Shown here one piece after another: positions 5,611-63,968 of a DNA stretch of 64,000 nucleotides. Within the stretch, counting starts at the first letter, position 1. Every line of letters begins with the position of its first letter. Below the pieces are notes generated by a model that did no database searches, was not told the origin of the DNA, and saw only the letters and a list, made by a program, of their open reading frames with translations. This stretch comes from Candidatus Moranbacteria bacterium GW2011_GWC2_40_12 (lineage in GTDB: Bacteria > Patescibacteriota > Minisyncoccia > Moranbacterales > UBA11712): positions 71,889-135,888 of the forward strand of contig LBYD01000002.1 of assembly GCA_000995965.1 (NCBI GenBank), read 5' to 3'. The translations under genes were made by a program, and so were the position numbers.

Positions 5611-5947
5611 AATTCCATATTATGTTATTTTTAACATATATTGGAATTATATCACCTTGTCGGCCTTTTGTCAAACTCCGCGTGCCGCCGCAAAATCCAG
5701 CCCTATTTCCCCGCCGCGGGGAGATTTATCCCGTACCACAGAAAGAAGTTTGCAGTATCCGACAGAGATTACAATTTTGCGTTTTTTATCCATCACCCTA
5801 CAGACTCATGCTACATTTCCTGTGGTATAAGACGAACCAATGCCACCGTTCCGATTAGTAAAAGATGATTTTACATGAGTTCATTAAGTTTATCTAATGT
5901 TTGTCTAAAAGTTTATCTAAAATATTCACACAAACAGTGACTTTTAG

Positions 5948-11273: not shown

Positions 11274-11401
11274 AGGATATTGAAATTGGTTGTCGGAAAA
11301 TCGTAATTGGTAATAGATACTGGAAAGTGGAATGTGGAACTTAATTTTTTATTTTCCAGTTTCTATTACTATTTTCAAATTTCAATCAACTAATTTCTGT
11401 G

Positions 11402-12346: not shown

Positions 12347-12437
12347 GATATTAACTATTACAGGCAGGAAGCCTGGGGCGAAGTGAGAACGCTAGCTTCT
12401 CTATATTGCTATAATACACAGGAGTTGAAAGTTTGCC

Positions 12438-12474
12438 AATAATAAAGGACTCGGTGTAATTTCCACGCGAGTCC
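12438..12474 (-). terminator. rho-independent terminator of gene 12501-12836
   Basis: GGACTCG-loop-CGAGTCC hairpin followed on the minus strand by a T-rich run. Confidence 0.5.
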
Positions 12475-12500
12475 CTCGTTAGGTCGAAAATCCGGTAGAC

Positions 12501-12836
12501 CTACTCGTCTTTGATGACGAGCTTGAAACCATGCATAAGCATTCCGGCAGGTTCGACGGTGATTTTTTTCTTGTCGGTAAAGAAAGTTTGCATAAGACCG
12601 TTAAAATCCTCGGGGCTTGGCTCGAACTCAAACTTTTTCATCCTGCCCATAAAGGTTGGGCCTTCAAAGATGAGCCGTTGGCCTTCGGCGCTAATGGTAG
12701 CCTCTTTCTTAACCAAGGCCCGGGGAAACCGTTGGACAAAATCCTCCGAATAGGTTTCCGCGCCAGCAACAAGACTTATGCCGATTATCTTTCCGTCTGG
12801 ATTTTTAAGAACTTCTACCTCGATTTCGAGTGGCAT
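12501..12836 (-). CDS. hypothetical protein (paralog A of tandem pair)
   Basis: 111 aa. The motif DGKIIGISLVAGAETYSEDFVQRF aligns with EGKITGFTVIAQKQGEAEFFCKDF of the adjacent gene. Confidence 0.5.
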   Translation of the reverse strand: MPLEIEVEVLKNPDGKIIGISLVAGAETYSEDFVQRFPRALVKKEATISAEGQRLIFEGPTFMGRMKKFEFEPSPEDFNGLMQTFFTDKKKITVEPAGMLMHGFKLVIKDE

Positions 12837-39870: not shown

Positions 39871-40998
39871 ATGCCGCTTTCTATTCAGGACCAAATAAAA
39901 AATCAAATCGATGCTTCCCAAAGTATTTTGATACTCACCAAGCCCAAAGCTTCGAGCGATGCAGTCTCGGCAAGCTGGGGCTTTTTTCATTTGCTCAAAA
40001 ATCTTGGAAAGAATCCAGTGATTCTGGAAAACAACCCTCAAGCCGAAAAACTGAAATTCCTCCCTCTCCCGGAAAAAATGGAAAAGAAAATCACCGGAGC
40101 GCGGGATTTTGTTTTGTCTTTCAACACCAAATACAACAAAATCATCAGTTCCCGCGTCGAAGAAAAAGAAGAGGCCTTTGAAATCTATATCACGCCGGAA
40201 AAAGAAGCGATTGACCCGCGCGATTTTTCGTTCATCCCCGCCAAGTTCAAATACGACCTTGTTGTCGTGATCGGCTGCCAAAATTTGGATGATCTTGGCG
40301 AAATCAAGGAAAAAAACAGCGACCTTTTTTTTGAGCTCCCGGTCGTGAACATCGACAATTCGCCCGCCAACGAAAATTTCGGGCAGTTCAATCTTGTTGA
40401 TACCACCGCCTCTTCCGTTTCGGAAGCGCTTTGTGAATTTTCGAAAGGCTTCGATGAAAAACATATGAATCCAGCCTCGGCCCAGTGCTTCCTCGCGGGA
40501 ATAGTTTCCGCCACTTCCAATTTTCAAAGCGAACGGACGACTCCCCAGACCTTCCTCGCCGCTTCGTGGCTCATCGAGAAAGGCGCCAGCCAGCAGGAAA
40601 TCGTCCGCCATCTCATGAAAACCCAGTCTTTCCCCTTTATGAAGCTCTGGGGGCGGGTTATGGCCCGGCTCAACTGGGACGAAAAACTGAAGCTGGCCTG
40701 GTCACTGGTGTCGCTTGAGGATTTTGTCCTGAGCCGGACGACCGAGACGGATTTGCCGCTGATACTCGAAAAGATCAAAGACAATTTTTCCTCGGGAAAC
40801 ACTTTTGCCATCATTTTCAGCGAATCGCTCAAAAAAAATATCGCGCTCCTCAAGACCAATGACCTGCCGTCGCTTCGAAATCTGGAAAAGCTTTTCAACG
40901 GAGAAATAAAAAACGGACATCTGTCCGTCGAATTTCTGGGAAAAGATATCTTGGAGGCGGAAAAAGAGATGATGGAGAAATTGAAAACTCTAAAATAG
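39871..40998 (+). CDS. DHH-family phosphoesterase-like protein (NrnA-like, catalytic motifs degenerate)
   Basis: 375 aa with DHH/DHHA1-like architecture. The expected DHH motif reads IDNSP. Confidence 0.5.
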   Translation: MPLSIQDQIKNQIDASQSILILTKPKASSDAVSASWGFFHLLKNLGKNPVILENNPQAEKLKFLPLPEKMEKKITGARDFVLSFNTKYNKIISSRVEEKEEAFEIYITPEKEAIDPRDFSFIPAKFKYDLVVVIGCQNLDDLGEIKEKNSDLFFELPVVNIDNSPANENFGQFNLVDTTASSVSEALCEFSKGFDEKHMNPASAQCFLAGIVSATSNFQSERTTPQTFLAASWLIEKGASQQEIVRHLMKTQSFPFMKLWGRVMARLNWDEKLKLAWSLVSLEDFVLSRTTETDLPLILEKIKDNFSSGNTFAIIFSESLKKNIALLKTNDLPSLRNLEKLFNGEIKNGHLSVEFLGKDILEAEKEMMEKLKTLK

Positions 40999-41260: not shown

Positions 41261-42262
41261 CTATTTTGCAAATATCTCCTTCGCCGCGTCCCAAAATTCT
41301 GGCTTCGCGTGCTTTGTTTTGAGCCAATACCACCATTCAGCTCCCCAAAGATAGTTTTCCGGAAAACCCACAAGCTTCGCGTATTCGATATTTTCCCGAA
41401 ATTGCTTGAGGCTCATTGATTTTTCCTGCTCCTCGAGCGGCAAATCATAAATCAGTTTCGGTCCCCAAGGCTCGGTCTGAAGCTCCGAGACGATAATCGG
41501 CTTCCCGGGAAAAAATAAATGCACGATATTGGCCTTTAGCCAGAAAAATCTCGGGGGAAGAGGGTATTTGAAATATCCAATCGGATCTTTGTGGATAATC
41601 CGATACATGGTTGTTCCAAAAATATCGGCCCGCTTGGCCGCCCGCACCCAGATGGAAAGCTCCCCGCTGTCCGTCACCATTATTTGATGGCTTGAATCAA
41701 TTTCGCGCACTTTTGCCACTTCCCTGTCAAGAAATCCCTTTTCCGTCGTCGTGCATTCTCCAAAAGGAAGAAAAGGCTCATTGTCCACTTGCCAGAGATA
41801 TAAATTGGGAATATTTTTGTAGCGCTCAACCTCTTTTGACATCGCCGAGAGAATTTTTTCCTGTTTTTCCGACTCGGTGAGTTTATCCGCCCAAAACGGC
41901 GCATGGCATTCCGGCCAGCGTGGAAGCTTTCGACCGATGACCAAGATCAATTGCGCATTTCTTTTTTGCGCTTCCTCAATCATCCAGTCATAATCCGAAA
42001 AATCATACCTCCCCTCCTCCTCTTCAATGTCCTGCCAATAAATAGGGAGTCGGATTCTTTTCGCGCCGAGATCATCGAGAACGGCCAAATACGCTTCCCG
42101 CCAGTCAAGCCCCATCTCCGTCGCGAACATTTTTGAAAAGGCCACACCCCACTTGATATCGCCGTTTTTTTCCGCAAGGCCGGCCGGTTTTCGAATAAGA
42201 AAAAAGAATCCGGCCACAAGAGCCATAATGATCAACAAAAATACTTTTCTTCTAAGTTTCAT
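41261..42262 (-). CDS. membrane-anchored glycoside hydrolase (GH5-like TIM barrel)
   Basis: N-terminal TM helix. LWQVDNEP contains the catalytic acid/base NEP motif, and the later segment ...ELQTEPW... fits a nucleophile Glu. Confidence 0.55.
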   Translation of the reverse strand: MKLRRKVFLLIIMALVAGFFFLIRKPAGLAEKNGDIKWGVAFSKMFATEMGLDWREAYLAVLDDLGAKRIRLPIYWQDIEEEEGRYDFSDYDWMIEEAQKRNAQLILVIGRKLPRWPECHAPFWADKLTESEKQEKILSAMSKEVERYKNIPNLYLWQVDNEPFLPFGECTTTEKGFLDREVAKVREIDSSHQIMVTDSGELSIWVRAAKRADIFGTTMYRIIHKDPIGYFKYPLPPRFFWLKANIVHLFFPGKPIIVSELQTEPWGPKLIYDLPLEEQEKSMSLKQFRENIEYAKLVGFPENYLWGAEWWYWLKTKHAKPEFWDAAKEIFAK

Positions 42263-42345
42263 TTATTAGATATTAGATTGGAGTAATGTATATAATCTTA
42301 ATTTTTATGCATATGCATAAAAATTAAGATTCCCCTGAAAAAACT

Positions 42346-43254
42346 TCATTTGAAAATAACCAGCATTGTCCCGAAAGTTACTGAAAGAATTCCCGCCATT
42401 TTTGTGATGATATTGAGAATTGAGAATCTTTCGACAAAAATATTCTTGAGATAAAAAGACAAAAACAGGGCAAACACGAAGGTGAGAAGATATTGCACCG
42501 AAACAAACGAGCTTATGACTGCCACACTGCCGAGCATAATGCTGTAGTTCACGAGCAAAGTGCCGGCTCCGGCGGTGGTTTTCGCGACAATCGTTCCGGC
42601 AAAATTTTCGAAATTTTCCTTTCTTTTTTTCTTTCTGACCCCGTCAAGCACAGCTTTTCTGAATTCTGGAATGAGAAGCGAGGCGAGAGCCGCGAACAAA
42701 ATTCCCCCGCGGCTCAAGATGTATCCGCTCACGAAAGCCTGGTGATTATATCCATATTTCAAAAGCACCATTGAGAATGCCGCCAGCACCCCAGCGGCGA
42801 CTGTCCCGCGCCAGTGGAAAAAAAATCTCCCGGCATAAAATTTGTAGGAAATGAGCGCGCCTCCGATCACGAGAAAAATTATACCGCCGGCTTCGCGCGA
42901 AGAAAATGAATCATTGAGAATCATTTTCGCGCAAATCGTCGTGACGACTGTCGAGGTCGCCCCAAAAAGAACATAGACCCTCGGAGCCGAAGAGCGGATC
43001 AGCGCGCGGAAAAGAAAGGCGAGAGAGAGAAAAAGCAGGATTCCCGAAAGAAAAGAAATCAGAAACGGAATAACTCCAAACCATTTGAGCCCGAAAGGCG
43101 CGAACCCAAGGCTGAAAACGGAAAAAATGCCGACGTAGAAAGTATAAAGAGGCCAGTTTTTCATGCGGGCGGCCAGAATATATTTGCTCATCACCGATTC
43201 GACGGCGAGGAGCGCGTATCCCAAAATGGCAATGGTCATCCAATTCATCTTCAT
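42346..43254 (-). CDS. DMT/EamA-like transporter
   Basis: 302 aa with 10 TM helices in two halves. Confidence 0.5.
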   Translation of the reverse strand: MKMNWMTIAILGYALLAVESVMSKYILAARMKNWPLYTFYVGIFSVFSLGFAPFGLKWFGVIPFLISFLSGILLFLSLAFLFRALIRSSAPRVYVLFGATSTVVTTICAKMILNDSFSSREAGGIIFLVIGGALISYKFYAGRFFFHWRGTVAAGVLAAFSMVLLKYGYNHQAFVSGYILSRGGILFAALASLLIPEFRKAVLDGVRKKKRKENFENFAGTIVAKTTAGAGTLLVNYSIMLGSVAVISSFVSVQYLLTFVFALFLSFYLKNIFVERFSILNIITKMAGILSVTFGTMLVIFK

Positions 43255-43265
43255 TCACTTGGAAA

Positions 43266-44519
43266 CTAAGTTTCCAAGTAGTTATTTTTGCATATTTTCG
43301 CGTATTCCAGCGCGCTCGGGCGGACTTTCCTTTCCATAGTTTTATAATCCATTTCCACCAGCCCAAACCGCGGCCAAAAGCCTTTGTCCCATTCAAAATT
43401 GTCGAGAAACGACCAGTGAAAATACCCACGGACATCCACGCCTTCTCGAATGGCTTTATGAACGTGGAAGAGATAATTTTTTATAAACCCTGCCCTTTTC
43501 CGGTCCTTCGCGTCAGGAATTCCGTTTTCCGTGATGTAAATGGGAAGATTATATTTCTTGAGATCCATGAGAATATAGTACATGCCTTCCGGAACAATCT
43601 GCCGTCCCATATCATTTTCTTGATATTTTTCTTCATGCAATAAGGCCGAAAGTGAAAAAGGGACTCTCATATAATGCTGCGCGCCGATGAAATCCAAATG
43701 ACCAATCGTTTGTTTGATCAAATATTCGTTAGTAAAATGCTTAGCGAGAAACAAAAGGAAACCTGTTTGAAAAATTCCATTTCTATTATCAAAGAAATTC
43801 AACCATTCAGTGAACCCCACCATGGCTTGCGGTTTTTTCTTGTGAATCTCCGCATATGCTAATTTATGCGCCTTGATAAGATTTTTATAAACTCGAAAAG
43901 CTTCGAAAATGTTATGTTTCTGCGGCGGTCGATAACCCTTAATGTATCCTCCGCCGATTATCAGGATTGGCTCATTGAAAGTCAGCCAAAAAATCACGTC
44001 ATCGGAAAATTCTTTTACTATCTTCGCAGAATATCTCTTAAAATAGTCCGGAGATTTTTTATTCTCCCACCCCCCCTTTCGCGAAAACCACACAGGAAGA
44101 GTGTAATGCCATAGCGTCACAAACGGCTCCATTCCCCGCGCGCGGATGGCTTTCAATACTTTTCGGTAATGTTCGATTTCTTTTTCGTCAAATTTTCCTT
44201 CTTCCGGCTCGATCCGCGACCATTCAATGGAAATCCGAAAAGCGTTGAGACCAAGAGATTTGGCGATATCCAAATCTTCTTCGTAGCGGTTATAGTGGTC
44301 GCAGGCCCGGCCCGAGATATAATTTTCCGGGTCGAACATTTCTGGGAATTTCTTTTGCTGCCATTTCGCCCATTTGGTTTTGGCTTCGCTCGCGAGGCGT
44401 TTCGCGTTTTTCTTTTCCCACTCGCTCCAGTCATTCCGGCTCCCGCCTTCAACCTGATGGGCCGCCGTTGCCGCGCCCCACAAAAAACCATCGGGAAATT
44501 TTTTGTTTTTATTTTTCAT
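43266..44519 (-). CDS. GH1 beta-glucosidase
   Basis: FPDGFLWGAATAAHQVEG N-terminal signature, TLNEP and ITENG catalytic motifs. The track ORF starts further upstream (44621), but the Met at 44519 gives the canonical N-terminus. Confidence 0.9.
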   Translation of the reverse strand: MKNKNKKFPDGFLWGAATAAHQVEGGSRNDWSEWEKKNAKRLASEAKTKWAKWQQKKFPEMFDPENYISGRACDHYNRYEEDLDIAKSLGLNAFRISIEWSRIEPEEGKFDEKEIEHYRKVLKAIRARGMEPFVTLWHYTLPVWFSRKGGWENKKSPDYFKRYSAKIVKEFSDDVIFWLTFNEPILIIGGGYIKGYRPPQKHNIFEAFRVYKNLIKAHKLAYAEIHKKKPQAMVGFTEWLNFFDNRNGIFQTGFLLFLAKHFTNEYLIKQTIGHLDFIGAQHYMRVPFSLSALLHEEKYQENDMGRQIVPEGMYYILMDLKKYNLPIYITENGIPDAKDRKRAGFIKNYLFHVHKAIREGVDVRGYFHWSFLDNFEWDKGFWPRFGLVEMDYKTMERKVRPSALEYAKICKNNYLET

Positions 44520-44595: not shown

Positions 44596-47500
44596 ATGCC
44601 TGAAGAGACAAATAAAAACAAAACTGCTGGAGAAATACACGGCCATCACGAGGAGGAAGTCAGCCGGATCCTCTCCAAGATGAAACACGAATCCGAAGAA
44701 CAGCAAGCGGCCAGCCTGGCCGCTACTTTAGGTTTTCCTTATATCGATCTCAATATTTTCCCCATTGATCCGGAGACACTCCAAGTCATTCCGAAAGAAG
44801 ATGCTCTGAGACTTGAACTGGTTCCCATTCAAAGAGCCGGGAAAAATGTGAGCTTGGCTATTTCAAACATTTCTCACCCGGATCTCAAGAAATATCTTGA
44901 GAAACTGGAAAAAGAAGAGGGATACCGGCTGAAAATTTTCATATCTTCAAAAACCGGTTTCCAGAAAACCTTGGAGCGATACAAATTCATCGCTTTGGCC
45001 GATAATCTGGAAGACTTGCGCTTGACACTTTCCGGAACAGACCTCGCGGAATTTGAAAAAAATCTGAGAGATGTCATTGACCTCAAAAAAAGAATCACCG
45101 AAATACCCACGACGGAGGTGATAAACATCATCATGGCCGGCGCCGTAAAAATGGAGGCTAGTGATATCCATTTTGAACCTCAACAGGACGGCATCCGTTT
45201 GCGCTATAGATTGGACGGAATTCTTCAAAACATCACCGATCTTCCTTCGCAGGTATACCACTATATCCTTTCCCGGGTGAAAATTCTTTCCGGAATGAAA
45301 ATAAATATCCGAGACGTCGCTCAAGATGGGCATTTTTCCATCGAAATTGAGGAGAACGAAATAGACGTCCGTGTTTCAATTCTCCCCGGAAATTTTGGGG
45401 AGAATATAGTGATGCGCCTCCTGAATCAACGCTCCATAGCCTTGAAATACGACGACCTTGGCCTTCGAGGACTGGCCTATGACAAGCTCCGGGAGGAAAT
45501 GAAAAAGCCCAATGGGATAATCCTCAACACCGGCCCCACCGGATCGGGAAAAACGACAACGCTCTATGCCATTGTCAACACCCTCAACTCCCCGGAAGTG
45601 AAAATTATCACTGTTGAAGATCCGGTTGAATACAAAATAAAGGGAATTTCCCAGACCCAAGTTTCCAAATCGCGCGGATATACCTTCGCCAATGCTCTTC
45701 GGGCCATTGTCCGTCAGGATCCGGATGTTATTTTGGTCGGTGAAATAAGAGATGATGAAACGGCTCAAATTGCTGTCCACGCGTCCCTTACCGGACACCT
45801 GGTTCTTTCAACCCTCCACACCAATAGCGCTGTTGAAACGACGCCGAGGCTCACCGATATGGGAATAAAGCCTTCGCTCATTCCCGCGGCGGTGAATGCC
45901 ATTATCGCCCAGCGCCTGGTTCGAAAACTCTGTCCGGTCTGCAAGGAAAAGTATACTCCCGCCCGGGAAAGCGTGGAAAGCGTGAGGAAAATTCTCTCAG
46001 TAATATCTCCCAAGGCAAAACTTTCTGTCCCAAAAAATATTGATTCTTTTTTCCGGGCCAAGGGATGCCCGAAATGCCGCGGACTGGGATATAAGGGCCG
46101 GATTGGAATCTTCGAAATTCTGACTCTGAATGAAGAAATTTCCCAAAAAATAACTGAAATGGCCTCGGAATCGGAAATTTTATCTCTCGCCCTTGAAGCC
46201 GGAATGGTTACAATGCTTCAAGACGGGATTTTGAAAGCCCTCGAAGGAATAACTTCCCTCGAAGAAGTTCAAAGGGTGACTGGAGAAGGAAAGTTTTTGG
46301 AAGAACTCTATGAAAAAATCATTACCCAGCTGCTTCTCCGTTCCGTTTTGATAAGAAAAGACATCGCCCAAAAAATAGAGGGCATAAAAAATGATTTCTC
46401 AAAATATCAGGAACTGGTGAACACGGCCAACCCAGAAGAGATACTAAGCCTAATCATTGCTGCCGGAATCAAACTTCAGGCCGGCGACATTCATATCGAG
46501 CCGGAAGAAAATATTGTGAAAATCCGCTTCCGAATTGATGGAATTCTTCAAGATGCCGCCCAAATACCCCTATCAGATTACCCGCATGTTATGGGTGATA
46601 TCAAAATTCTCTCCGGTTTCAAGGCGACTGACGTTGAATCCGGGGTGAAGGACAGCCGGTTTTCCATAAGCCTGGAAGAAGGTGTATTTTCCGAAATTGC
46701 AAAGAGGGAAATTGATGTCCGCGTTTCAATAATTTTGGGCGGCTATGGGGAAACGGTCGTTATGCGGCTTCTCGGCCAAGGCGACCAGGAGACTGACATC
46801 TTTAAGCTCGGCATCCGCCAGCAGAATCTGGACAGGCTTTTGGAAAAAATAAAAAAGCCCAATGGGATAATCCTCAACACCGGCCCCACCGGATCGGGAA
46901 AAACGACAACTCTTTATTCTTTGCTTTCTCTTCTCAACAAGCCGGGTGCAAAAATTATAACCGTTGAAGACCCAATCGAATACCGTCTCAAAGGCATCCT
47001 GCAGACTCAAGTGAATGAAAAGAAGGGTTACACTTTCCCAATGGCTCTGCGCGCGCTTCTCCGCCAAAATCCGGATATCATGATGATTGGTGAAATCCGC
47101 GATGAAGAAACCGCGAAAATTTCCGTTCAGGCGGCGCTCACCGGTCATCTAGTTCTTTCAACGCTTCACACAAACAACGCGGCCAGCTCCATTCAGCGGC
47201 TCATCAATATGAGCGTCAACCCAACTGATATTGCTTCATCGGTAAATGCTTTCATGGCCCAACGCCTGGTGCGTTTTCTTTGCCAATCCTGCAAGAAAAA
47301 AGTGCGGCCAAGCCAGAAAGTGAAGAGCCAGATTGAAAGAATGCTTGGAACGATATCGGAAAAAGCGGGAATCGAAGTCCCGAAAAAAGTTGATTATATT
47401 TTCGAAGCGCAAGGCTGTCCAGAGTGCAACAACATCGGCTACAAGGGAAGAACTGCGGTCAGTGAAATAATGGATATGACAAAAGAGATGGAAGAGCTTG

Positions 47501-47640
47501 TCACCCGAGGACCGACTACCTCCGAGGTGGAAGATCTTGCCAGGAAACAAGGAATGCTGACCATGGCCCAAGACGGGATTCTGAAGGTCGTTGAAGGGAT
47601 CACGACTATGGAAGAAGTGGAAAGAGTAACAGAGGAATAA
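44596..47640 (+). CDS. tandem-duplicated GspE/PilB-type secretion/pilus ATPase (two complete N-domain + ATPase modules in one 1014-aa protein)
   Basis: Each half has a T2SSE_N-like domain and an ATPase core containing Walker A, Asp box, Walker B and His box, followed by a tetracysteine motif (see finding 2 for the motif sequences). Confidence 0.85.
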   Translation: MPEETNKNKTAGEIHGHHEEEVSRILSKMKHESEEQQAASLAATLGFPYIDLNIFPIDPETLQVIPKEDALRLELVPIQRAGKNVSLAISNISHPDLKKYLEKLEKEEGYRLKIFISSKTGFQKTLERYKFIALADNLEDLRLTLSGTDLAEFEKNLRDVIDLKKRITEIPTTEVINIIMAGAVKMEASDIHFEPQQDGIRLRYRLDGILQNITDLPSQVYHYILSRVKILSGMKINIRDVAQDGHFSIEIEENEIDVRVSILPGNFGENIVMRLLNQRSIALKYDDLGLRGLAYDKLREEMKKPNGIILNTGPTGSGKTTTLYAIVNTLNSPEVKIITVEDPVEYKIKGISQTQVSKSRGYTFANALRAIVRQDPDVILVGEIRDDETAQIAVHASLTGHLVLSTLHTNSAVETTPRLTDMGIKPSLIPAAVNAIIAQRLVRKLCPVCKEKYTPARESVESVRKILSVISPKAKLSVPKNIDSFFRAKGCPKCRGLGYKGRIGIFEILTLNEEISQKITEMASESEILSLALEAGMVTMLQDGILKALEGITSLEEVQRVTGEGKFLEELYEKIITQLLLRSVLIRKDIAQKIEGIKNDFSKYQELVNTANPEEILSLIIAAGIKLQAGDIHIEPEENIVKIRFRIDGILQDAAQIPLSDYPHVMGDIKILSGFKATDVESGVKDSRFSISLEEGVFSEIAKREIDVRVSIILGGYGETVVMRLLGQGDQETDIFKLGIRQQNLDRLLEKIKKPNGIILNTGPTGSGKTTTLYSLLSLLNKPGAKIITVEDPIEYRLKGILQTQVNEKKGYTFPMALRALLRQNPDIMMIGEIRDEETAKISVQAALTGHLVLSTLHTNNAASSIQRLINMSVNPTDIASSVNAFMAQRLVRFLCQSCKKKVRPSQKVKSQIERMLGTISEKAGIEVPKKVDYIFEAQGCPECNNIGYKGRTAVSEIMDMTKEMEELVTRGPTTSEVEDLARKQGMLTMAQDGILKVVEGITTMEEVERVTEE

Positions 47641-47646
47641 ATATAA

Positions 47647-47811
47647 AAAAGCCTTTCAATCTGTAGACAAATCCCGCAACTAGGGAATCGCGGGGCAGGA
47701 ACAGTGCCGAGGAGCGGCTAAGCCGAAACCGGGCCGTCCATGTCTGGGCAAAAAAGTCCCCAGGAAGGAAAGTTACGAGCTCCCCTTATGTCTACAGATT
47801 GAAAGGCTTTT
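47647..47811 (+). ncRNA. candidate structured RNA / palindromic element (unknown class)
   Basis: A perfect 23-bp closing stem AAAAGCCTTTCAATCTGTAGACA / TGTCTACAGATTGAAAGGCTTTT encloses a 119-nt insert that is visibly GC-richer than the flanks (about 60% GC). The insert contains UCCCGCAAC and GGAAGGAAAG motifs. Confidence 0.35.
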
Positions 47812-47933: not shown

Positions 47934-48944
47934 ATGATTACCTCCTCTGCTGAACAAATCGATGATACAAAGCTTGATATAACCTTGCGGCCGCAAGCTT
48001 TTTCGGAATACGTCGGTCAAGAGAATACAAAGAAAAACCTGAATATTCTCATAAAAGCCGCTCAAAAACGAAAAGAGCCTATCGAGCACGTCCTCCTTTA
48101 CGGACCGGCGGGCTTGGGAAAAACGACCTTAGCCCACATCATAGCCAATGAAATGGGAGCTAATATTCGCACTACGTCCGGACCGGCCATTGAAAAAGTA
48201 GGAGACCTTGGCTCGATTCTGACAAATTTAAGCGACGGAGATATTCTTTTCATTGACGAGATCCACCGGCTGAACAAACTCATTGAAGAAGTTCTTTACC
48301 CGGCAATGGAAGACTTCAAGCTGGATATTATTATCGGAAAAGGGCCCTCGGCAAAAACTCTCCAGCTTGATCTTCCGCGATTCACGCTGATCGGAGCCAC
48401 AACCCGCCTGGGATCAATATCCTCGCCGCTTCGCAATCGCTTTGGCGTCATTCACCGCCTTGATTTTTATGAGAATGAGGATATTGAGAAAATACTCCAC
48501 CGCTCGTCGAAAATTCTTGAGATCCCAATCGACAGTGCCGGAGCCGCTTCAATTTCCCGTTCCAGCCGCCGCACGCCTCGAGTGGCCAACCGGCTTTTAA
48601 AACGGGTTCGCGATTTCACCCAGGTCGAAAACGAGAAAGAAATAAACGAAAAATTGACTCTCCAGGCTCTCAAAAATCTTGAAATTGACGCGCTTGGCCT
48701 CGAGCCCACTGACCGGCATATCCTTGCGACTATCATTGAAAAATTCTCCGGCGGACCGGTTGGCATCCAGACACTAGCTGCCGCTACAATGGAAGAGACT
48801 GAAACTATCGAAGATGTTTATGAGCCATTTCTTCTCCAAATCGGATTTCTAGCTCGCACTCCCCGCGGAAGAGTCGCCACGGAACAGGCTTACAAACATT
48901 TAGGAATAGAGTATAATAAAGAAAACCAGAATAAGCTATTGTAA
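47934..48944 (+). CDS. ruvB: Holliday junction DNA helicase RuvB
   Basis: [12 protein letters not shown]..., Walker [16 protein letters not shown] and a winged-helix C-terminus. Confidence 0.95.
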
Positions 48945-53758: not shown

Positions 53759-54760
53759 TTATTTGCGAGTGTTTAACGTCGTTATCGGCCGCGATTGCGT
53801 AATGTAGAAATTCCCCTTTTCGAGCGCCCATTCGATGTCTTGAGGTTTTTTATAATGTTTTTCAACTCTATCGCAAAGTTTGGCTAATTCGACAATTTGC
53901 TTACTGGTCAGTTTCTGCTGATTTTGTTTTTTTCTTGAAACCGGCTTCCATTCTACACCTTCGCCTTTCTTTTTTATAATCATCCTTGATTGTTCGGAAA
54001 AATTTATATCAATGTTGCTAAATTCTCTTTTGTTCACCACATATGTGTCCGGCGTGATTTGGCCCGACACAATCGCTTCTCCCAGCCCATATCCAGCTTC
54101 AATCACCATTTGGTTTTTGTCTTCCGTCACCGGATGCACCGTAAAACAAACTCCGGAAATTTCCGACTGGACCATTTTTTGAACGACTACCGCGACGCTC
54201 ACCGGATAGGAATCTTTGATTTTTGATGTCCCAGCCCGAATTTTTTGCTGGTGCTTTTTTGAAAATACCCCTTTTTCAAAGGCGTAGAACAAGGCCCTTT
54301 GCGTAAAAAGCGACGACCAGCATTTTTTGATGTTTTCAAAAATATTTTTTTCGGTAGTGTTGAGATAGGTTTCGAGCTCGCCCGCCCAGGAAGCAACCGC
54401 CGAATCTTCGGCCGTTGCGCTGCTGCGTACCGCAACGTGCGGAGCTTTTAGTTTTTTGAATTCGGCTAAAAATAATTTGGCGAGATCTTTCGGCATGGGA
54501 ACGTCATGAATCATATCTCGGATTTCATGCGATGCTCTGTCCACCGAACTCATATCCTTATAATTTATTTTTTTTAGTATTGAAACAATATCAACTCCAA
54601 GATCCGTTTCTTCCAAAAAACGGTCGAAGGCGTCAATGATAATCACAAATCCCGGCGGGACCGAAATCCCCGCCTGTGTCATTTCTCCCAACGATGCACC
54701 TTTCCCGCCGGCAATTCCGACATCTTTTTTTGAGATTTCTTTGAATGTTTTTGTGAACAT
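53759..54760 (-). CDS. stand-alone PPDK_N (PEP synthase/PPDK N-terminal ATP-grasp-type, PEP/pyruvate-binding) domain protein
   Basis: GGKGASLGEM, AVRSSATAED and DIEWA...FYITQSRPIT motifs. It has no His swivel domain or TIM barrel. Length 333 aa. Confidence 0.8.
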   Translation of the reverse strand: MFTKTFKEISKKDVGIAGGKGASLGEMTQAGISVPPGFVIIIDAFDRFLEETDLGVDIVSILKKINYKDMSSVDRASHEIRDMIHDVPMPKDLAKLFLAEFKKLKAPHVAVRSSATAEDSAVASWAGELETYLNTTEKNIFENIKKCWSSLFTQRALFYAFEKGVFSKKHQQKIRAGTSKIKDSYPVSVAVVVQKMVQSEISGVCFTVHPVTEDKNQMVIEAGYGLGEAIVSGQITPDTYVVNKREFSNIDINFSEQSRMIIKKKGEGVEWKPVSRKKQNQQKLTSKQIVELAKLCDRVEKHYKKPQDIEWALEKGNFYITQSRPITTLNTRK

Positions 54761-54772
54761 AATATTGGATTT

Positions 54773-55528
54773 TTATTTTTTAACTGTCAAAAGCGCTTCG
54801 AGATGCTGCCGCTGCGAAACTTCAACATCCCGGAATCCAATTTCTTGGAGCATTTTTACGAGTTCCCCCTCTCGCATGATAACACCAGGCTGCATATCCC
54901 CTTCGTAATGCCTAATCCATTCTTTTCTTTTTTCTTCATCCGGAATATTTTGAAACTGTTCGTTCGCGTATTTGATCTCTTTTTGAAATATATCCTCGTC
55001 ATCCGGCATAATCTTGTCCGCGGTGATGAATTCACCTCCAGGTTTCAAAACCCGATAAATTTCTTTTAGGACCGCTCTTCTATAATCATTTCTGAAATTA
55101 TGAATCGTGAATCCAGACGCGACTATCGAAACGGAATTATCCGGAATTTTTTTCAAAAATTTCAGCGCGTCATCTTGGCGAAGCTCGATCCTACCTTCCT
55201 TAATATATTGTCCCAAATTTTCCTGCGCTTGGCGAATCATCCCCGCGTCGTTGTCAGCACCGATAATTTTGACATTTGCATTGGCTTTGAGAATTTCTTC
55301 CGCCGTGAAGCCCTTTCCAGTCCCAATTTCCACGATTTCTGAAAAACCATCCGCATCAAGCTCTGGACTTTCAATATTTTTGACTGCCTTTGCCACTTCG
55401 CCTCCAACTAAACTCTGCATCTCGTCATGATGCGGCATGGCATAGCGGATTGTTTCCAGCTCCTGAAGCCTCGCAAACCGCTGATTAGGAATGATATTTT
55501 CATTTTCGTCTTTTTCCTCAAGAGTCAT
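54773..55528 (-). CDS. class I SAM-dependent methyltransferase
   Basis: Motif I VEIGTGKG and post-I LKPGGEF. Confidence 0.8.
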   Translation of the reverse strand: MTLEEKDENENIIPNQRFARLQELETIRYAMPHHDEMQSLVGGEVAKAVKNIESPELDADGFSEIVEIGTGKGFTAEEILKANANVKIIGADNDAGMIRQAQENLGQYIKEGRIELRQDDALKFLKKIPDNSVSIVASGFTIHNFRNDYRRAVLKEIYRVLKPGGEFITADKIMPDDEDIFQKEIKYANEQFQNIPDEEKRKEWIRHYEGDMQPGVIMREGELVKMLQEIGFRDVEVSQRQHLEALLTVKK

Positions 55529-55530
55529 AA

Positions 55531-56946
55531 TTATTTTCTTTTCAAAATTTTCACAACCCCCTTATCCGCATCCACCTCCACCAGATCGCCATCTTTGATA
55601 ACGTCCGTCGCGACGTGAGTTCCAACTAAGCAGGGTATTTTTAGCTCCCGAGAAATAATCGCCGCGTGTGACAGCAGGCCTCCTTCGTTCGTTACCAGAG
55701 CACTTGCCTTGCCGGCTATATCCATAACATTCGGCTGGGTCATTTGGGTCACAAGGATCTGCCCTTTTCGGAATTCTTTTCTTAAGCGTCTTGCATTTTC
55801 AATATCACCGGATAGTAAAATTTTTGCAACACCTCTAGCAATTCCAGAATTCGCCGAAATGCCTTTTATTTCATTGGTTTTAGCTATTTCATACAGCTCT
55901 TTTAGCTCTCTCTTCGCTAGTTTTTCAGCTTGAATGCCTGATTTGTATATGGCCCTGTTGTTTTTCCACAACACAGCGAAGCTTTTTTTTCTGTCCTTCC
56001 TTTCCTTTTCGGACAATTTTTTTCCTCTTATTAAAACTGCCTGAATATCTTTGAGAAGATATATTTTCTCTAAATTCACGATGGACTCGCCCGTTCTTTT
56101 CCCGATTTCTTCGAACAGGGGGATACAATTATAGTCGCTTCCCGCCCAAAGAGATTTTATTCTCATTCTTGCTAGCGCGAATTTTTGCAATACATCAACT
56201 AATTGCTTAATATTATTATACTTTTTTATAATTTTAGCCTGCTCCTGCCTCAACTTTTTCTTCTCTGCAATTATATTTTTTAACTTTTTATTTTTTTTGT
56301 CTTGCCTAAACCTTTCATTTATCGTATCTTGCGCTTCTTGTCTTGTTGAGTGAAAAAAAACAAGCCAGGGGTATTTTTCCAGATGACTGTTTATCATTTT
56401 CCTTGAAAAAGGTTTTATTAGAATTTTCTGCCAATCAATGAGCTCCTTATTGACTTCGTCTAATTCGACTGGCGTCATGAGCGCCAAAGCGTCTTTTTTT
56501 GAAACAGATTTTTCTAATTCCTTAACCAAATAATGCATCCCTTCTGCTTGCGTAACCTTGAATATCCCTATCGCGTATGACCATAATTTCACTGATTTTT
56601 CAACATATTTCAGCAAGGCTAGGTTTGACAGCTTTCTAAAATTTGCTTTTCTCAATTCTTTGTAAAAAGAATCGTATTCCCGACAAAATTTCTCTACTAT
56701 ACGAAAATAATTATCAATAGATTTTTTCTTGAGAAATATTTTCCCTTTCTCTGTGTTTGCTTTGAAATCTTTTTTGGAATAATAGTATGAAATATTATTA
56801 TTCCGGGAAATAGCAAAAGCTCGTTCAATTTTATTCCATGGGACAACCGCCTTGTATTTCGAATAAGAAATAATCTGATTCTGAAGCGTCTGGTGAAACT
56901 GAAAAGCGCTCCAAAAATATTTGTATGGAGATTTGCTCTTTTTCAT
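55531..56946 (-). CDS. PEP-utilizers (phospho-His swivel) domain protein with unknown 370-aa N-terminal domain (paralog 1)
   Basis: C-terminal ILVTQMTQPNVMDIAGKASALVTNEGGLLSHAAIISRELKIPCLVG matches the mobile His domain of PpsA/PPDK/RPH. Confidence 0.75.
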   Translation of the reverse strand: MKKSKSPYKYFWSAFQFHQTLQNQIISYSKYKAVVPWNKIERAFAISRNNNISYYYSKKDFKANTEKGKIFLKKKSIDNYFRIVEKFCREYDSFYKELRKANFRKLSNLALLKYVEKSVKLWSYAIGIFKVTQAEGMHYLVKELEKSVSKKDALALMTPVELDEVNKELIDWQKILIKPFSRKMINSHLEKYPWLVFFHSTRQEAQDTINERFRQDKKNKKLKNIIAEKKKLRQEQAKIIKKYNNIKQLVDVLQKFALARMRIKSLWAGSDYNCIPLFEEIGKRTGESIVNLEKIYLLKDIQAVLIRGKKLSEKERKDRKKSFAVLWKNNRAIYKSGIQAEKLAKRELKELYEIAKTNEIKGISANSGIARGVAKILLSGDIENARRLRKEFRKGQILVTQMTQPNVMDIAGKASALVTNEGGLLSHAAIISRELKIPCLVGTHVATDVIKDGDLVEVDADKGVVKILKRK

Positions 56947-60161: not shown

Positions 60162-61742
60162 TTATTTTTTTGTGTTCAATAATCTTACAACCCCTCGAAC
60201 GGCGTCCACTTCAATTTCGTCTCCTGTCCTGACAATTCTCGTGGCAATTCGAGTGCCAACAACGCAGGGCAGTTTGAATTCACGGCTAATGATCGCTGCG
60301 TGGCAGGACATTCCGCCTTCATCCGTCACCACCGCGGTAGCTTTCCGGAACACGGGAATAAATTCTATTGTGGTCATATAAGTGACCAGAATTTCTCCTT
60401 TTTTGAATTCCGAAATTCCCGACGCGTCTTCAAGCACTCTGGCAATTCCCCGGATTTTCCCTCTCGAGGCTGCCAATCCTTTGAACTGCGAAATGTTCGC
60501 ATATTTTTTGAACGGCTCACCGATGTTTTCTTTTCTTATCAACACTTCGATATTTTTTTTGCCGGAAATGATATTCATTTCTCCCTTTTTTATAACAATC
60601 CCAAATCCATTCTTTTGCCTGTCAGCAATTTCTTTTTTTGAAATTATTTTTCCGGTCTTCAAAAATTCTCCGACTTCGGGATACGAGCAATATAAGATAT
60701 CATCTCTGGTTATGCCGGCCCTTCTGGCAACTTCATCCAGCAGATTATTGTAGCTCAAAAGCGCCTTGGTGAAATATCCCTTTGCCCAGTCCCTTTGGGC
60801 AATAAGCTCCGAAAGGGCATCAAGCGCGTGCACTACGTCTTTCGGAGGCTTCAGCTCTGTGATAATTTTCTGCCTTTGCTTGTTCAGCTGGGCAAAATTA
60901 TCCAAGATTTCTCTCAACTTTTCATCTGGTTTTTGTTTAGCGACAATGGCTTGTCTGAAAAGATCAACCCATTTTTCTCTCGACCAGCCCCCACTAACAT
61001 ATTCCGTGTTGATCCACTCATATTTTTGGATATGTTTTTCAAACAATATATTTTCGCGTTTATAACTTCTCAATTTCAGCGAAATATTTTTGTTGTTTTC
61101 ATTTTCAAATAAGCTTCTAATTTTTTTATTTTTATAAAGTTCCAACGCGACTTGATGGAAATTCTTCTGTTCGGTAAAAGCAACAGTCTCGCCCGTGTTG
61201 ACGGAAAGCAGTTCTTTGTAGGCTTGAAATTCCCTCTCTTTTTTCAATTCTTTCAGGCGTTTTCTCAAAAATTTGATTATCCGCCAGTTTTCATCAAAGC
61301 ACGCTTCAATTCCCCAAAGCTGAACGGTTATCAAAGGGCAGGCCATTATCGCTTCGATAAATCCGTCGTAAAGTTTTTTTAATTCATTATTCGACAGCAA
61401 GGACAAATTGTCCTGGTCGATTTCCATGCATTTGAAAAATACCGCACCGAATATTTCATTTGTTCTTTTTCCGAAATCCCCGACAAAGTTAGGATTACTG
61501 TCGATGCTTCTTTGGACATCTTTGTATTTGTCTTTGCTTGAAAACTGGTTTTTGTCATAGAAAACATAGCAGCCTTTCCCGGGAACACCGACGACTATCT
61601 GGCAGTCGAACCAAAAGTTGACCACCGGCGCCCAGCCCCTGCCTTTCATCCCGTGCATGAGAAAACTGAAGTGATGAAGGCTGGCATTTCTCCGATGCGC
61701 CCAGAACCAGATTACTTTTTTGCTATTTTTTTTCTTGGCCAT
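60162..61742 (-). CDS. PEP-utilizers (phospho-His swivel) domain protein with unknown 420-aa N-terminal domain (paralog 2)
   Basis: C-terminal ILVTYMTTIEFIPVFRKATAVVTDEGGMSCHAAIISREFKLPCVVG. Confidence 0.75.
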   Translation of the reverse strand: MAKKKNSKKVIWFWAHRRNASLHHFSFLMHGMKGRGWAPVVNFWFDCQIVVGVPGKGCYVFYDKNQFSSKDKYKDVQRSIDSNPNFVGDFGKRTNEIFGAVFFKCMEIDQDNLSLLSNNELKKLYDGFIEAIMACPLITVQLWGIEACFDENWRIIKFLRKRLKELKKEREFQAYKELLSVNTGETVAFTEQKNFHQVALELYKNKKIRSLFENENNKNISLKLRSYKRENILFEKHIQKYEWINTEYVSGGWSREKWVDLFRQAIVAKQKPDEKLREILDNFAQLNKQRQKIITELKPPKDVVHALDALSELIAQRDWAKGYFTKALLSYNNLLDEVARRAGITRDDILYCSYPEVGEFLKTGKIISKKEIADRQKNGFGIVIKKGEMNIISGKKNIEVLIRKENIGEPFKKYANISQFKGLAASRGKIRGIARVLEDASGISEFKKGEILVTYMTTIEFIPVFRKATAVVTDEGGMSCHAAIISREFKLPCVVGTRIATRIVRTGDEIEVDAVRGVVRLLNTKK

Positions 61743-62646
61743 GTTTCATTTTTTCTAAATCAATTAAACCCTCAAATTTTTTTCCCGGATAAAATTCTCC
61801 TGCCACTTTAATTTTGGGAGGATCGGAATTAATAAAATCTATCTCAAATGATCCTGATTCCCTAATAATTCCACCAGTTTTTTTGAAGAATTCTTCCGAC
61901 GCCAGTTCCTCTGCGCTCATCCCATCCTCAAAAACCAAATATTTTTTGAGAAATGCCATCACCGGAAAAGAATGCGTCACATCAATCTGGAGATACGGAT
62001 CGCCGGCAGGCTGTTTGCCTCCGGCTTCTTTTTGCCTGTCCAATAAATTCAGATGATGGCTAAATCCAAAATAGCGCTTCGCAAAAATATCTGCAAGCTC
62101 ACCGTAGGTCGTTTCAAAGCGCCTGGCCGGAAACGGATCATTTTCTTCATCAAACATTTCGGACAAAACCTTCATATCCATCCTGTTCCTTATTTCCGCT
62201 TCTTTTGCTTCGCCATTTAGATCCGGATATTCTTTTTCTATCTCTTCAACAATCATTGGCTGCATTTCTTTCTGCATAGCGACAATCCTGCCAAGATCCG
62301 CTGCGTACTTTTTTTCCTTGGCGTCTTCGAGCGGTTGAAATGGCACTTCAAGTTTTTCATCTTTTCTGATATATTCTTTGGTCCGATGGCTCGTGCCACT
62401 CAATTCCTCCTGGGCGATATTCGCTGTATCCACAGCTCTTTGCACAGAGCTTGTAGCAACTCGGGCAAGCCCGATCCCATCCTTAGCATCCAATTTATCA
62501 AAGCCTTGCCTGACTGAATCATCAAAATACGCAGCTTTGGCATTTTTTTCTCCCGCCGCGCTAAGTTTCGGACCGTGGCGAAAAACAATAACTCTCAAAG
62601 TCACTTTTCCCTTGCTATCAAGATTTATTTCTTTTTCTATTGACAC
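61723..62646 (-). CDS. histidine-phosphatase-superfamily protein
   Basis: LRVIVFRHGPK (RHG motif) near the N-terminus and a later THS motif. Length 307 aa. Confidence 0.45.
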   Translation of the reverse strand: MSIEKEINLDSKGKVTLRVIVFRHGPKLSAAGEKNAKAAYFDDSVRQGFDKLDAKDGIGLARVATSSVQRAVDTANIAQEELSGTSHRTKEYIRKDEKLEVPFQPLEDAKEKKYAADLGRIVAMQKEMQPMIVEEIEKEYPDLNGEAKEAEIRNRMDMKVLSEMFDEENDPFPARRFETTYGELADIFAKRYFGFSHHLNLLDRQKEAGGKQPAGDPYLQIDVTHSFPVMAFLKKYLVFEDGMSAEELASEEFFKKTGGIIRESGSFEIDFINSDPPKIKVAGEFYPGKKFEGLIDLEKMKHGQEKK

Positions 62647-63968
62647 TATTTTTTCCTTTTTATTATCTTGATTATACCACGATCCGCGTCCACTTCCACG
62701 AGATCGCCATCGTGCAAAACTTTGGTCGCGATTTTCGTGCCGATGATGCAGGGCTTGTTAAGCTCGCGTGAAACAATCGAGGCGTGCGAAGTAATACCTC
62801 CCTCATTGGTGACAAAAGCGCCGGCTCGTTCCATAAGAGGAATAAAATCCACCGAGGTCATGGCAGTGACAATAATATCGCCGTCTTTGAATTTTCCAAA
62901 ATCTTTTTTTTCCAGAATTATTTTAGCTGTCCCCACTATTTTCCCCTTATTTGCTATCATACCTTTGATTTCCCCGCCCACTGATATTTTATCCTCGTCT
63001 TTGATGCTATTTATTTCATCAATGAAAGGCACTATTTCTTTCTTCGTCAGGATTTTGTAACCTGGCAATGCATCGGCATAAATAATTCCCGTCCAATCTC
63101 TATTTTTAATTATTCGAGCAATTTTTTTGTCATTTTCAAAATGCAACTTGAAAATTTCCTCAGGTGTCAACTTCCAGCAATCCCTCCAATCTTTCGATTC
63201 ATTATCCAGCGCAATTTCTTTGAATAATGGCCGATAAGCAAGACTGGCCCGGCAGAATACATATTTGCGATATTCATTGAGGATTGTTCCTACTTGCAAA
63301 ACCTCGGCCAGCTGCGTAATTTCGGCATTCTTTTTCTCTTTGAGTTTTCTCTTCGCTATTTTTATTTTTTCTTTATGGTTTTGCAGTATATTTTCTTTCT
63401 CTTTTTTGCAATCATACTTATTGAGCGCCATCAGTTGTTTCATTATGTCCTTTCTCGTCCACGGATCCTCATTGAAATTCACAGGTACAAAATGATACTT
63501 CGCATAATATTTTTCGAAAATCTCTGAAGCTTTCGGAAATTTTTTTATATTATTTGTCTTTATCCCGTGTTTTCGTAAATATATGCATAAATCGAGCAAA
63601 TCAAGCCGAGATTCCACTAGGGGGGTGTGTTTTGGAGGGTAAGTGATTTCCGCAACCAGAAATTCAAGCTCATTCTGGCCAATATTCGGATAATATAATC
63701 TTAATTTATCAACCAGCAATCCGTGGACGAGTCTCCCGATAGCCGTGGTTATATATAGCCCCGCCGACAAATTGAGATTGGCCTTTATGTAGTTTTTATA
63801 TTCCCGCTCGCCCGCCTTTTTTTCCAATGCATCACTTGCTCCCAATAAATTATTGCCGTGTTTTTGGTAAGCTGATTGTAGTTTTCCAAATTTAGCTGGA
63901 TTCAAACATATTTCGCAAATTTTTTTGTGATAATTGTCTGAATTATCTTGGCTATGATGAGCAAACAT
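62646..63968 (-). CDS. PEP-utilizers (phospho-His swivel) domain protein with unknown 340-aa N-terminal domain (paralog 3)
   Basis: C-terminal IIVTAMTSVDFIPLMERAGAFVTNEGGITSHASIVSRELNKPCIIG. Confidence 0.75.
   Translation of the reverse strand: MFAHHSQDNSDNYHKKICEICLNPAKFGKLQSAYQKHGNNLLGASDALEKKAGEREYKNYIKANLNLSAGLYITTAIGRLVHGLLVDKLRLYYPNIGQNELEFLVAEITYPPKHTPLVESRLDLLDLCIYLRKHGIKTNNIKKFPKASEIFEKYYAKYHFVPVNFNEDPWTRKDIMKQLMALNKYDCKKEKENILQNHKEKIKIAKRKLKEKKNAEITQLAEVLQVGTILNEYRKYVFCRASLAYRPLFKEIALDNESKDWRDCWKLTPEEIFKLHFENDKKIARIIKNRDWTGIIYADALPGYKILTKKEIVPFIDEINSIKDEDKISVGGEIKGMIANKGKIVGTAKIILEKKDFGKFKDGDIIVTAMTSVDFIPLMERAGAFVTNEGGITSHASIVSRELNKPCIIGTKIATKVLHDGDLVEVDADRGIIKIIKRKK

Follow-up and report, generated by a model that had tools for sequence, protein, structure and literature searches.

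A PilB/GspE-family ATPase with two tandem modules is conserved in Candidatus Moranbacteria and carries an internal repeat suggestive of gene conversion

A stretch of 64,000 nucleotides (nt) from Candidatus Moranbacteria bacterium GW2011_GWC2_40_12 (contig LBYD01000002.1, positions 71,889 to 135,888 of the forward strand; hereafter the window) contains a gene of 3045 nt whose predicted product of 1014 amino acids (aa) joins two PilB/GspE-type ATPase modules, A and B, in a single chain. PilB/GspE motors are normally studied as homohexamers. Our results show that this two-module gene is real and conserved lineage-wide in Candidatus Moranbacteria, tiny and uncultured bacteria of groundwater which belong to the Patescibacteria or candidate phyla radiation (CPR). 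To judge from their sequences both ATPase sites appear functional, and a 59-nt tract, identical in the two modules and covering their Walker A regions, points to recent copying of DNA from one module to the other.

Results

Architecture of the two-module gene

On the 1014-aa protein the Pfam profile T2SSE (PF00437) scores 770.9 bits against a cut-off of 24.9, in two stretches, the best of which (aa 171-560) spans profile positions 7-370 of 370. By this match the protein is a member of the PilT/VirB11-like secretion ATPases (Pfam T2SSE). Its halves share 51% identity across 398 aa (BLASTP) and, as an earlier note on this DNA had observed, they are otherwise diverged in nucleotide sequence: outside the tract, in-register DNA identity is ~0.45-0.72 across the ATPase cores and ~0.2-0.35, the random level, in the N-terminal part. 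The motifs which that note had read in each half could all be located in both modules. Walker A is GPTGSGKT in each (aa 313-320 and aa 763-770), the Asp box is ITVEDPVEY in module A and ITVEDPIEY in module B, Walker B with its catalytic Glu reads DPDVILVGEIRD in module A and NPDIMMIGEIRD in module B, and the His box GHLVLSTLHTN is identical. Each module also has a four-Cys motif composed of two CxxC pairs (CPVC...CPKC, aa 446-494; CQSC...CPEC, aa 896-944), predicted to bind zinc in both.

The earlier note had gone further and described two full units, each with a T2SSE_N-like domain. Two ATPase units in one gene are indeed present, but the N1 (MshEN) domain belongs to module A only: Pfam gives a single match, at aa 45-129, and none ahead of module B. 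Module B is preceded by a linker alone, of ~50 aa, which in an AlphaFold2 (AF2) model forms helices at 566-580, 588-594 and 601-610, with low confidence at aa 575-581, and which by eye resembles the linker of module A ahead of its N2 domain. Consequently, the duplicated unit would be ~450 aa long and comprise linker, N2 and C-terminal ATPase domain (CTD) without N1. In the model N1 is an alpha/beta domain. The cyclic di-GMP (c-di-GMP) motif RLGxx(L/V/I)2xxG(L/V/I)2 was absent from the window protein and from proteins P0001-P0270 in a regular-expression search.

The gene is not confined to one sequence record. All of its 3045 nt, both 59-mers included, recur with 0 mismatches in seven independent assemblies (JGI, NCBI GCA_003510405.1, ENA), 38 blocks of public assemblies list the exact protein, and a partial protein with 100% identity carries the name Candidatus Moranbacteria bacterium RIFOXYD1_FULL. 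Among the ENA records with the identical gene, two bear the name k141 and one k127; should these names give the k-mer size used by the assembler, it would exceed the 59-nt repeat. A scan for orthologs, with one genome per species, returned 80 loci. A continuous open reading frame (ORF) of ~1005-1030 aa with two Walker A boxes is found in 79/80 of them, the remaining locus being truncated. The earlier note had named a misassembly, or a stop codon or frameshift between the halves, as what would refute it. Recurrence of the exact gene does not bear out a joining artefact, and the junction is open in 79 loci of other genomes. To the extent that public data can tell, the gene is neither misassembled nor chimeric nor a pseudogene. 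A frameshifted or fused pseudogene, in particular, was ruled out by the conservation of the ORF and by the ratio of non-synonymous to synonymous substitution rates (dN/dS) given below.

A conserved family and an old duplication

Far from being an oddity of this genome, the gene represents a conserved Moranbacteria family with a fixed neighbourhood. Thirty-seven of the 80 loci are labelled Moranbacteria or Moraniibacteriota and 18 Parcubacteria, Patescibacteria or Paceibacter-type. Another 12 bear other labels (Bdellovibrionales, Bathyarchaeia, Saccharibacteria); since their synteny is the same as that of the others, we take them as mislabelled bins. At 90% identity, more than 120 clusters of ~1005-1030 aa are found. 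A HMMER search of 1.84 billion cluster representatives gave ~14 clusters at 50% identity that match across the full two-module length, while the remaining matches were ordinary PilB-like proteins of ~550 aa aligned to module A with N1. The two-module ATPase is widespread in one CPR lineage.

Across 79 genomes, mean identity is 0.694 between A modules and 0.667 between B modules, against 0.492 when A is compared with B within one protein and 0.490 when the two come from different genomes. As the last two values are nearly equal, A and B must have evolved independently since an old duplication, and concerted evolution of whole modules, considered as a candidate, was ruled out by the same comparison. 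In a neighbour-joining tree, A modules and B modules form separate clades. On this evidence the duplication predates the radiation of the family.

The search for single- and double-module relatives proposed in the earlier note returned the double form as the typical one, together with one single and one triple version. The single-module protein (P0136, 565 aa) is encoded at the same locus, between the DHH phosphoesterase gene and ruvB. The triple-module protein (P0013, 1460 aa; modules A, B and B') lies behind TsaE-DHH (L088 8001-12383, JGI 3300022698) on a 77-kb contig and is carried by this contig only. Between its diverged modules no exact in-register run is longer than 21 nt, and a collapsed repeat is therefore not the explanation. 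More distant double-module proteins adjoin TsaE, RuvB, RuvC or YebC. Since single-, double- and triple-module versions occupy the same TsaE / DHH / GspE / RuvB neighbourhood, the duplication arose in place: a unit of ~450 aa was duplicated within a single-module gene that already stood between the DHH gene and ruvB.

In two proteins, P0130 and P0131, modules A and B are sister branches of the tree. The halves of P0131 (L091 3226-6213, GCA_021733405.1, behind PolA-TsaE) are 74% identical, and their DNA identity is a mosaic of 0.47-0.97 with an exact run of 74 nt, a pattern that points to a duplication of its own and of younger date, or else to heavy homogenisation by gene conversion. P0135 (1047 aa; L092 6001-9144, GCA_964384625.1; also L093) has Pfam matches to T2SSF, the platform protein, apparently N-terminal, in addition to two T2SSE modules. 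It lies behind a pair of extracytoplasmic function (ECF) sigma and anti-sigma genes, in a context unlike that of CPR, and is an independent, different fusion.

Type of ATPase and state of both sites

Against PDB sequences the whole protein matches Geobacter PilB best (E 5e-112, the best stretch being module A), as does module B alone (E 1.4e-92). For both queries the solved structures that score best are those of PilB (Geobacter, Myxococcus), Thermus PilF and Vibrio GspE (E 1e-83 to 1e-112), whereas matches to PilT/PilU reach only 1e-22 to 1e-32, those to PilT by itself 1e-27 to 1e-32. With the AF2 model, Foldseek returned template modelling (TM) scores, normalised to the target, of ~0.9 to PilF, PilB and GspE cores over ~390 columns, in a table that does not tell which module was aligned; no PDB chain covering both modules was found. 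The single-chain model has a mean predicted local distance difference test score (pLDDT) of 80.5 and a predicted TM score (pTM) of 0.54, and given this pTM the arrangement of A relative to B is not confidently predicted.

As PilB/GspE extension-type we regard an ATPase that has Walker A, Asp box, Walker B and His box in each module, the four-Cys motif, which is missing in PilT, and a closer resemblance to PilB/GspE than to PilT/PilU. Both modules display all of these features, and a PilB-PilT fusion is therefore excluded. The candidate in which module B would be PilT-like, giving an extension plus retraction fusion, was ruled out because the PilB match is far above that to PilT. Thus alignment of each half to the PilB, GspE and PilT references, which the earlier note had recommended, places both in the PilB/GspE type.

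Catalytic motifs and Cys positions are invariant in an alignment of 94 sequences and kept in almost all representatives of the 50% clusters, the exceptions being P0128, without the four-Cys motif of module B, and P0135, with Lys replaced by Thr in its first Walker A. Comparison with L001, the nearest species at 89% aa identity, gave dN/dS ratios of 0.022 (A core) and 0.049 (B core) at dS >1; dN amounts to 0.036 for module A and 0.065 for module B, which thus changes ~1.8x faster. From these codon comparisons both modules are under strong purifying selection, and both ATPase sites appear functional. As both keep every catalytic motif, any asymmetry between the sites is invisible in the sequence.

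An identical tract at the Walker A regions

The 59/59 identity noticed earlier is exact, with an offset of 1350 nt, i.e. 450 codons, and a mismatch directly on each side. When codons were redrawn from the gene's own usage with the amino acids fixed, the longest in-register run averaged 12.8 nt and never passed 24 in 200 simulations. Codons for the same amino acid are identical at 19/20 positions in the tract and at 73/174 (42%) elsewhere in the gene. In orthologs the in-register runs are only 8-41 nt and the tract region is 75-92% identical between A and B; in the window gene itself, the flanks of the tract show an identity of 0.5-0.6 between modules. The tract in module A reads PNGIIL, whereas almost all orthologs have PNGM(I/V)L in module A and PNG(I/V)(I/F)L in module B. 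At this site module A thus has the Ile of module B in place of the Met found in almost all orthologs, which designates module B as the donor. Moreover, dS to the nearest relative is already >1, synonymous sites being saturated, so that the identity is not retained ancestry.

Excess identity, diverged flanks, absence in orthologs and the donor state in the recipient are all present, and the 59-nt identity is best explained, on sequence grounds, by short-tract intragenic gene conversion with module B as donor and module A as recipient. This agrees with the gene conversion or recent homogenisation suggested in the earlier note. In the recent ancestry of this population, the Walker A region of module B would have overwritten that of module A. 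The event is younger than the split from relatives 89-91% identical and is fixed in all seven assemblies. Recombination between the two 59-mers could be looked for as in-frame deletion variants; there were none, the shorter matches being all simple truncations.

A weaker signal of the same kind, conversion-like, recurs at Walker A across the family. In 16/79 genomes, runs between A and B have p <= 0.01 and mostly end at Walker A or Walker B. Family-wide, DNA identity between a protein's own A and B is 0.756 at Walker A, compared with 0.694 across genomes; this own-over-cross excess of 0.061 contrasts with 0.013-0.033 elsewhere, and the own A-B identity at Walker A is in the top 5% for 23/79 genomes. 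Recombination needs near-identity, and the invariant P-loop is where the modules are most alike in DNA, which may be why conversion falls there.

Table 1. Features of the two-module ATPase locus (window coordinates).
Feature	Position	Strand	Basis or remark
DHH/DHHA1 phosphoesterase gene, 375 aa, NrnA/TM1595-like	39871..40998	+	PDB 5o4z (TM1595) E 2e-12; NrnA 1e-08
Cassette: GH5-like hydrolase, EamA-like transporter, GH1 beta-glucosidase	41261..44519	-	Pfam
Two-module PilB/GspE-family ATPase gene, 1014 aa	44596..47640	+	ORF, zero internal stops; N1, module A, linker, module B
N1 / MshEN (T2SSE_N) domain, aa 45-129	44728..44982	+	Pfam PF05157, E 4.7e-09, one stretch
Module A core (N2 + ATPase CTD, four-Cys motif), aa 171-560	45106..46275	+	Best stretch of Pfam T2SSE
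59-nt identical tract, module A copy (KKPNGIILNTGPTGSGKTTT), likely recipient	45502..45560	+	Exact identity
Inter-module linker, aa 564-614, mostly helical	46285..46437	+	AF2 model
Module B core (N2 + ATPase CTD, four-Cys motif), aa 615-1014	46438..47637	+	BLASTP of halves; without N1
59-nt identical tract, module B copy, likely donor	46852..46910	+	Exact identity; usual module B state
ruvB	47934..48944	+	Pfam RuvB_N, AAA_lid_4, RuvB_C

Genomic neighbourhood

The usual order of the locus is TsaE(-), DHH(+), ATPase(+), ruvB(+), a bPH protein, an LTD/PKD protein, yebC and ruvC. The DHH gene is present in 65/81 loci, usually directly upstream of the ATPase gene and on the same strand, and ruvB, the downstream neighbour, in 66/81. 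Orthologs of the DHH gene match Pfam DHH, and the likeness of the window copy to TM1595/NrnA (nanoRNase / dinucleotide phosphodiesterase) is distant. The three-gene cassette between the DHH and ATPase genes was seen only in the window, L001, L005 and L078, and partly in L006 and L010; it interrupts an adjacency conserved in most loci, where the DHH gene lies directly beside the ATPase gene.

The earlier note had remarked that no pilus or type II secretion genes are adjacent, and none is present among the annotated ORFs of the window. Likewise, PilC/GspF, PilM/N/O, pilins and prepilin peptidase were not among the frequent neighbour families read or annotated in the 80 orthologous loci. In L018, L019 and L021 the double gene is immediately followed by another PilB-like gene, which has a single module (11013-12797 and 594 aa in L018; cut short in L019 and L021); this sub-clade has NusA upstream and is without the DHH and ruvB neighbours.

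Several side observations concern the immediate surroundings of the ATPase gene. A 17-nt inverted repeat (44501-44517 / 44607-44623, 94% complementary) brackets the divergent promoter region and the ATPase start codon; it is A/T-rich and may be chance. In five loci (L035, at 11110-12231, and the same position in L046, L053, L056 and L057), a 373-aa protein with a GGDEF-like signature, RAGGDEF by eye, is encoded between the double ATPase gene and ruvB; the N domain of the ATPase is without the c-di-GMP motif.

The 293-nt spacer between the ATPase stop (47640) and the ruvB start (47934) contains a candidate for a conserved structured RNA of ~155 nt (47651-47806, +). The window copy has a 23-bp closing stem (47647-47669 / 47789-47811) and a minimum free energy of -74 kcal/mol (z = -6.3). 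A profile search found the element in 76 loci, always on the + strand. In L088 and L090, where ruvB has another location, the element is still behind the ATPase gene; in L043 and L050, which have inserted genes, it seems to keep closer to ruvB. In an alignment of 29 sequences, compensatory double changes occur in 14/25 pairs, and 96% of the cells are paired, against 26-51% in slid controls. The window copy has no match at E <= 1 in Rfam 15; two orthologous copies gave Rfam matches far below gathering scores, the best one to a terminator-like hairpin at the edge of the element.

Elsewhere in the window, pieces of phosphoenolpyruvate (PEP)-utilising enzymes are encoded by paralogous genes at 53759-56946 (-) and 60162-63968 (-): PPDK_N alone (333 aa), and a PEP-utilizers mobile domain ending proteins of 471, 526 and 440 aa. 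They adjoin a methyltransferase and an asparagine-synthase-like gene, and a complete PPDK gene lies at 15358-17847. At 4224-7633 (-), an AbiEii-type nucleotidyltransferase toxin gene lies next to a gene for a Schlafen/AlbA_2 plus HATPase_c_4 protein; immediately upstream of the toxin gene, in the same orientation, is a 207-aa ORF that belongs to no known family. This AbiEii/Schlafen group may be a small defence island.

Discussion

Taken together, our results are probably accounted for by a PilB/GspE extension-type ATPase that was tandem-duplicated in place, would assemble as an A3B3 ring and underwent conversion of the tract from B to A. Characterised members of the family are described in PMC6858323 as hexamers built of N2(n)+CTD(n+1) packing units with flexible linkers, and the PilB ring as having a C2 pattern of closed and open interfaces. 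The simplest extrapolation from these relatives is a trimeric A3B3 ring: three double-module chains would close one six-module ring in which A and B alternate, so that its N1 domains would number three and not six. For the triple-module ortholog, two chains would suffice to close such a ring, which would then carry two N1 domains. ATP hydrolysis at both kinds of site would drive closure of N2 and CTD, the movement by which characterised relatives rotate the platform protein and add pilin subunits. The numbers of modules at this locus, 1, 2 and 3, are all divisors of 6, which is suggestive, but weak, evidence in favour of a six-module ring. More tentatively, and with a good deal of doubt, we propose a covalent A3B3 ring, or in the triple-module relative an (ABB')2 ring, in which neighbouring sites are permanently non-equivalent, only three or two N1 domains contact partners, and recurrent micro-conversion at the P-loop would be maintained because the two kinds of site have to remain kinetically matched. 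Such a ring would fit a three-fold platform protein, as is reported for PulF (PMC10790770).

Several points weigh against this account. Each module falls below the NCBIfam equivalog cut-offs for both PilB and GspE: module A scores 508.4 against 675.65 for TIGR02538 (PilB) and 494.0 against 630.25 for TIGR02533 (GspE), module B 419.1 and 427.9 against the same cut-offs, and the whole protein passes (915.6 for TIGR02538, 909.4 for TIGR02533) because its two modules add up. The single-chain pTM of 0.54 leaves the inter-module arrangement without confidence, and no PDB chain in the Foldseek search spans both modules. The direction of conversion is deduced mainly from one diagnostic codon (ATG to ATA). 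Finally, pilC, pilM, pilin and prepilin peptidase genes were not found among the annotated ORFs of the 64-kb window, so that the assignment to pilus assembly derives from homology; and as L018, L019 and L021 have an adjoining single-module PilB-like gene, the double gene may not be the canonical pilus motor.

A different geometry would be a stacked double ring, in which six chains form a hexamer ring of A under a hexamer ring of B, as in KaiC, p97/NSF or ClpB. Tandem duplication of ring ATPases often yields such stacked rings, the ~50-aa linker is long enough for either geometry, and N2 and CTD are complete in both modules, each of which could in principle form a homotypic ring. However, PilT/VirB11-like ATPases meet their membrane platform via one face of a single ring, and single rings alone are described in PMC6858323. 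The sole N1 is at the A end, and module counts of 1, 2 and 3 fit divisors of 6, weak evidence as it is. We therefore regard two stacked rings as unlikely.

The protein might also be neither a pilus nor a secretion motor, and work instead with its DNA-metabolism neighbours (DHH, RuvB/RuvC/YebC, PolA, Fpg), for instance when DNA is taken up or translocated. The linkage to TsaE, DHH, ruvB, ruvC and yebC persists down to ~40% identity, and pilus genes were not found nearby. According to PMC6744442, genes for components of type IV pili and competence are general among CPR bacteria, whose uptake of DNA presumably relies on both. Nevertheless, the neighbourhood may reflect inherited synteny in small, slowly rearranging genomes, its variants being local rearrangements of one region. 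The sequence is typically PilB/GspE, with four-Cys motif and N1, and only around its P-loop does it resemble the archaeal branch-migration ATPase PINA (39.8 bits, with a cut-off of 800). The company of DHH, ruvB, ruvC, yebC, polA and fpg may thus be inherited synteny or a hint at DNA uptake, but a role outside pili and secretion seems to us quite unlikely.

In the alpha3beta3 ring of F1, the alpha subunit binds ATP without hydrolysing it, and one of the two modules could similarly be a regulatory pseudo-ATPase. In this sense one may read the ~1.8x higher non-synonymous rate of module B and its P-loop variants GPTGAGKT and GPTSAGKT in some distant members. These variants still match GxxxxGK[T/S], though, and Walker A Lys/Thr, Asp-box Glu, Walker B Glu and His box are kept in both modules of essentially all members. 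We give little credence to a module that binds ATP without turning it over.

As for the tract, its identity could be due to chance together with codon bias, or to selection at the nucleotide level for an RNA structure or a binding site at both P-loops. The amino acids of the tract are invariant, and in pooled orthologs identical codons make up 56% at Walker A versus 49% elsewhere. Yet none of the 200 simulations exceeded 24 nt and no ortholog 41 nt, and the tract is only 75-86% identical in nucleotide sequence between orthologs, which speaks against a sequence-specific element. The divergence at synonymous sites (dS >1 to the nearest relative) and the change of Met to Ile in module A, a non-synonymous footprint of copying, add to this, and make chance or selection a very improbable source of the identity. 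Lastly, an exact 59-nt repeat inside a gene can mislead short-read assemblers into a false join of two pilB-like genes or of a collapsed repeat, but the recurrence of the same 3045 nt through different pipelines, the position of the 59-mers mid-module and away from the junction, the same continuous ORF without a long repeat in 79 loci elsewhere and the clearly module-specific flanks leave practically no room for an assembly artefact.

Our search of full-text literature, in which most subscription journals were not covered, returned no description of a PilB/GspE protein with two ATPase cores, and databases name the double-module proteins only 'GspE/PulE family protein' or 'PilB'. For PilB/GspE motors, the firing order of the six sites and the symmetry of the working ring are debated, as PMC6858323 relates. 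Fusion of two or three motor modules fixes which sites neighbour each other and would let one type of site be mutated alone, which elsewhere needs engineering. The locus also offers a clean, datable case of a ring ATPase moving from a homomer to a hetero-ring, with single, double and triple stages in the same place. Conversion in short tracts only where the DNA of the halves stayed similar would amount to concerted evolution that is local and not of whole modules. For CPR biology, the gene brings to attention a conserved PilB-like ATPase outside a pilus operon and beside recombination genes.

Comparison with known systems

The closest relatives of the window protein are PilB and GspE. PilB (Geobacter 5TSG, 5ZFR and 6OLJ; Myxococcus 3JC8) has the N1(MshEN)-N2-CTD order of module A and shares Walker A, Asp box, Walker B, His box and four-Cys motif with both modules; Foldseek TM scores to PilB, normalised to the target, are 0.88-0.91 over ~390 columns. 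It differs in being a single-module chain of ~570 aa that forms a homohexamer, whereas the window protein adds a second N2-CTD in the same chain, and here pilM/N/O/C and pilin genes were not found nearby. GspE/EpsE (1P9R, 4KSR, 4PHT) resembles the window modules in core fold, motifs and four-Cys; E values lie between 1e-102 and 1e-104 when the query is the whole protein, and between 1e-82 and 1e-87 when it is module B. It is likewise single-module and has GspL and GspF as partners in diderm bacteria, while PMC6744442 describes CPR bacteria as being without an outer-membrane secretin.

Thermus thermophilus PilF (6F8L, 5IT5) is, like the window protein, an enlarged member of the PilB family, ~900 aa long and with repeated parts, and its core is the best Foldseek match (TM 0.92, normalised to the target). 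In PilF the N-terminal GSPII/MshEN-type domains are repeated and there is one ATPase core; in the window protein, by contrast, it is the ATPase core that is repeated, with a single N1.

Among more distant ring ATPases, the comparison is by analogy. F1/V1-ATPase (alpha3beta3) and Rvb1/Rvb2 form six-site rings of two alternating paralogous modules, derived from a ring ATPase that was duplicated, as proposed here for A3B3. Their modules are, however, separate polypeptides, one of the F1 types being non-catalytic, whereas those of the window protein are covalently joined and both look catalytic. KaiC, p97/NSF and ClpB share with it a tandem duplication of a ring ATPase within one chain, but they assemble as two stacked rings of six chains, where a single alternating ring of three chains is proposed here.

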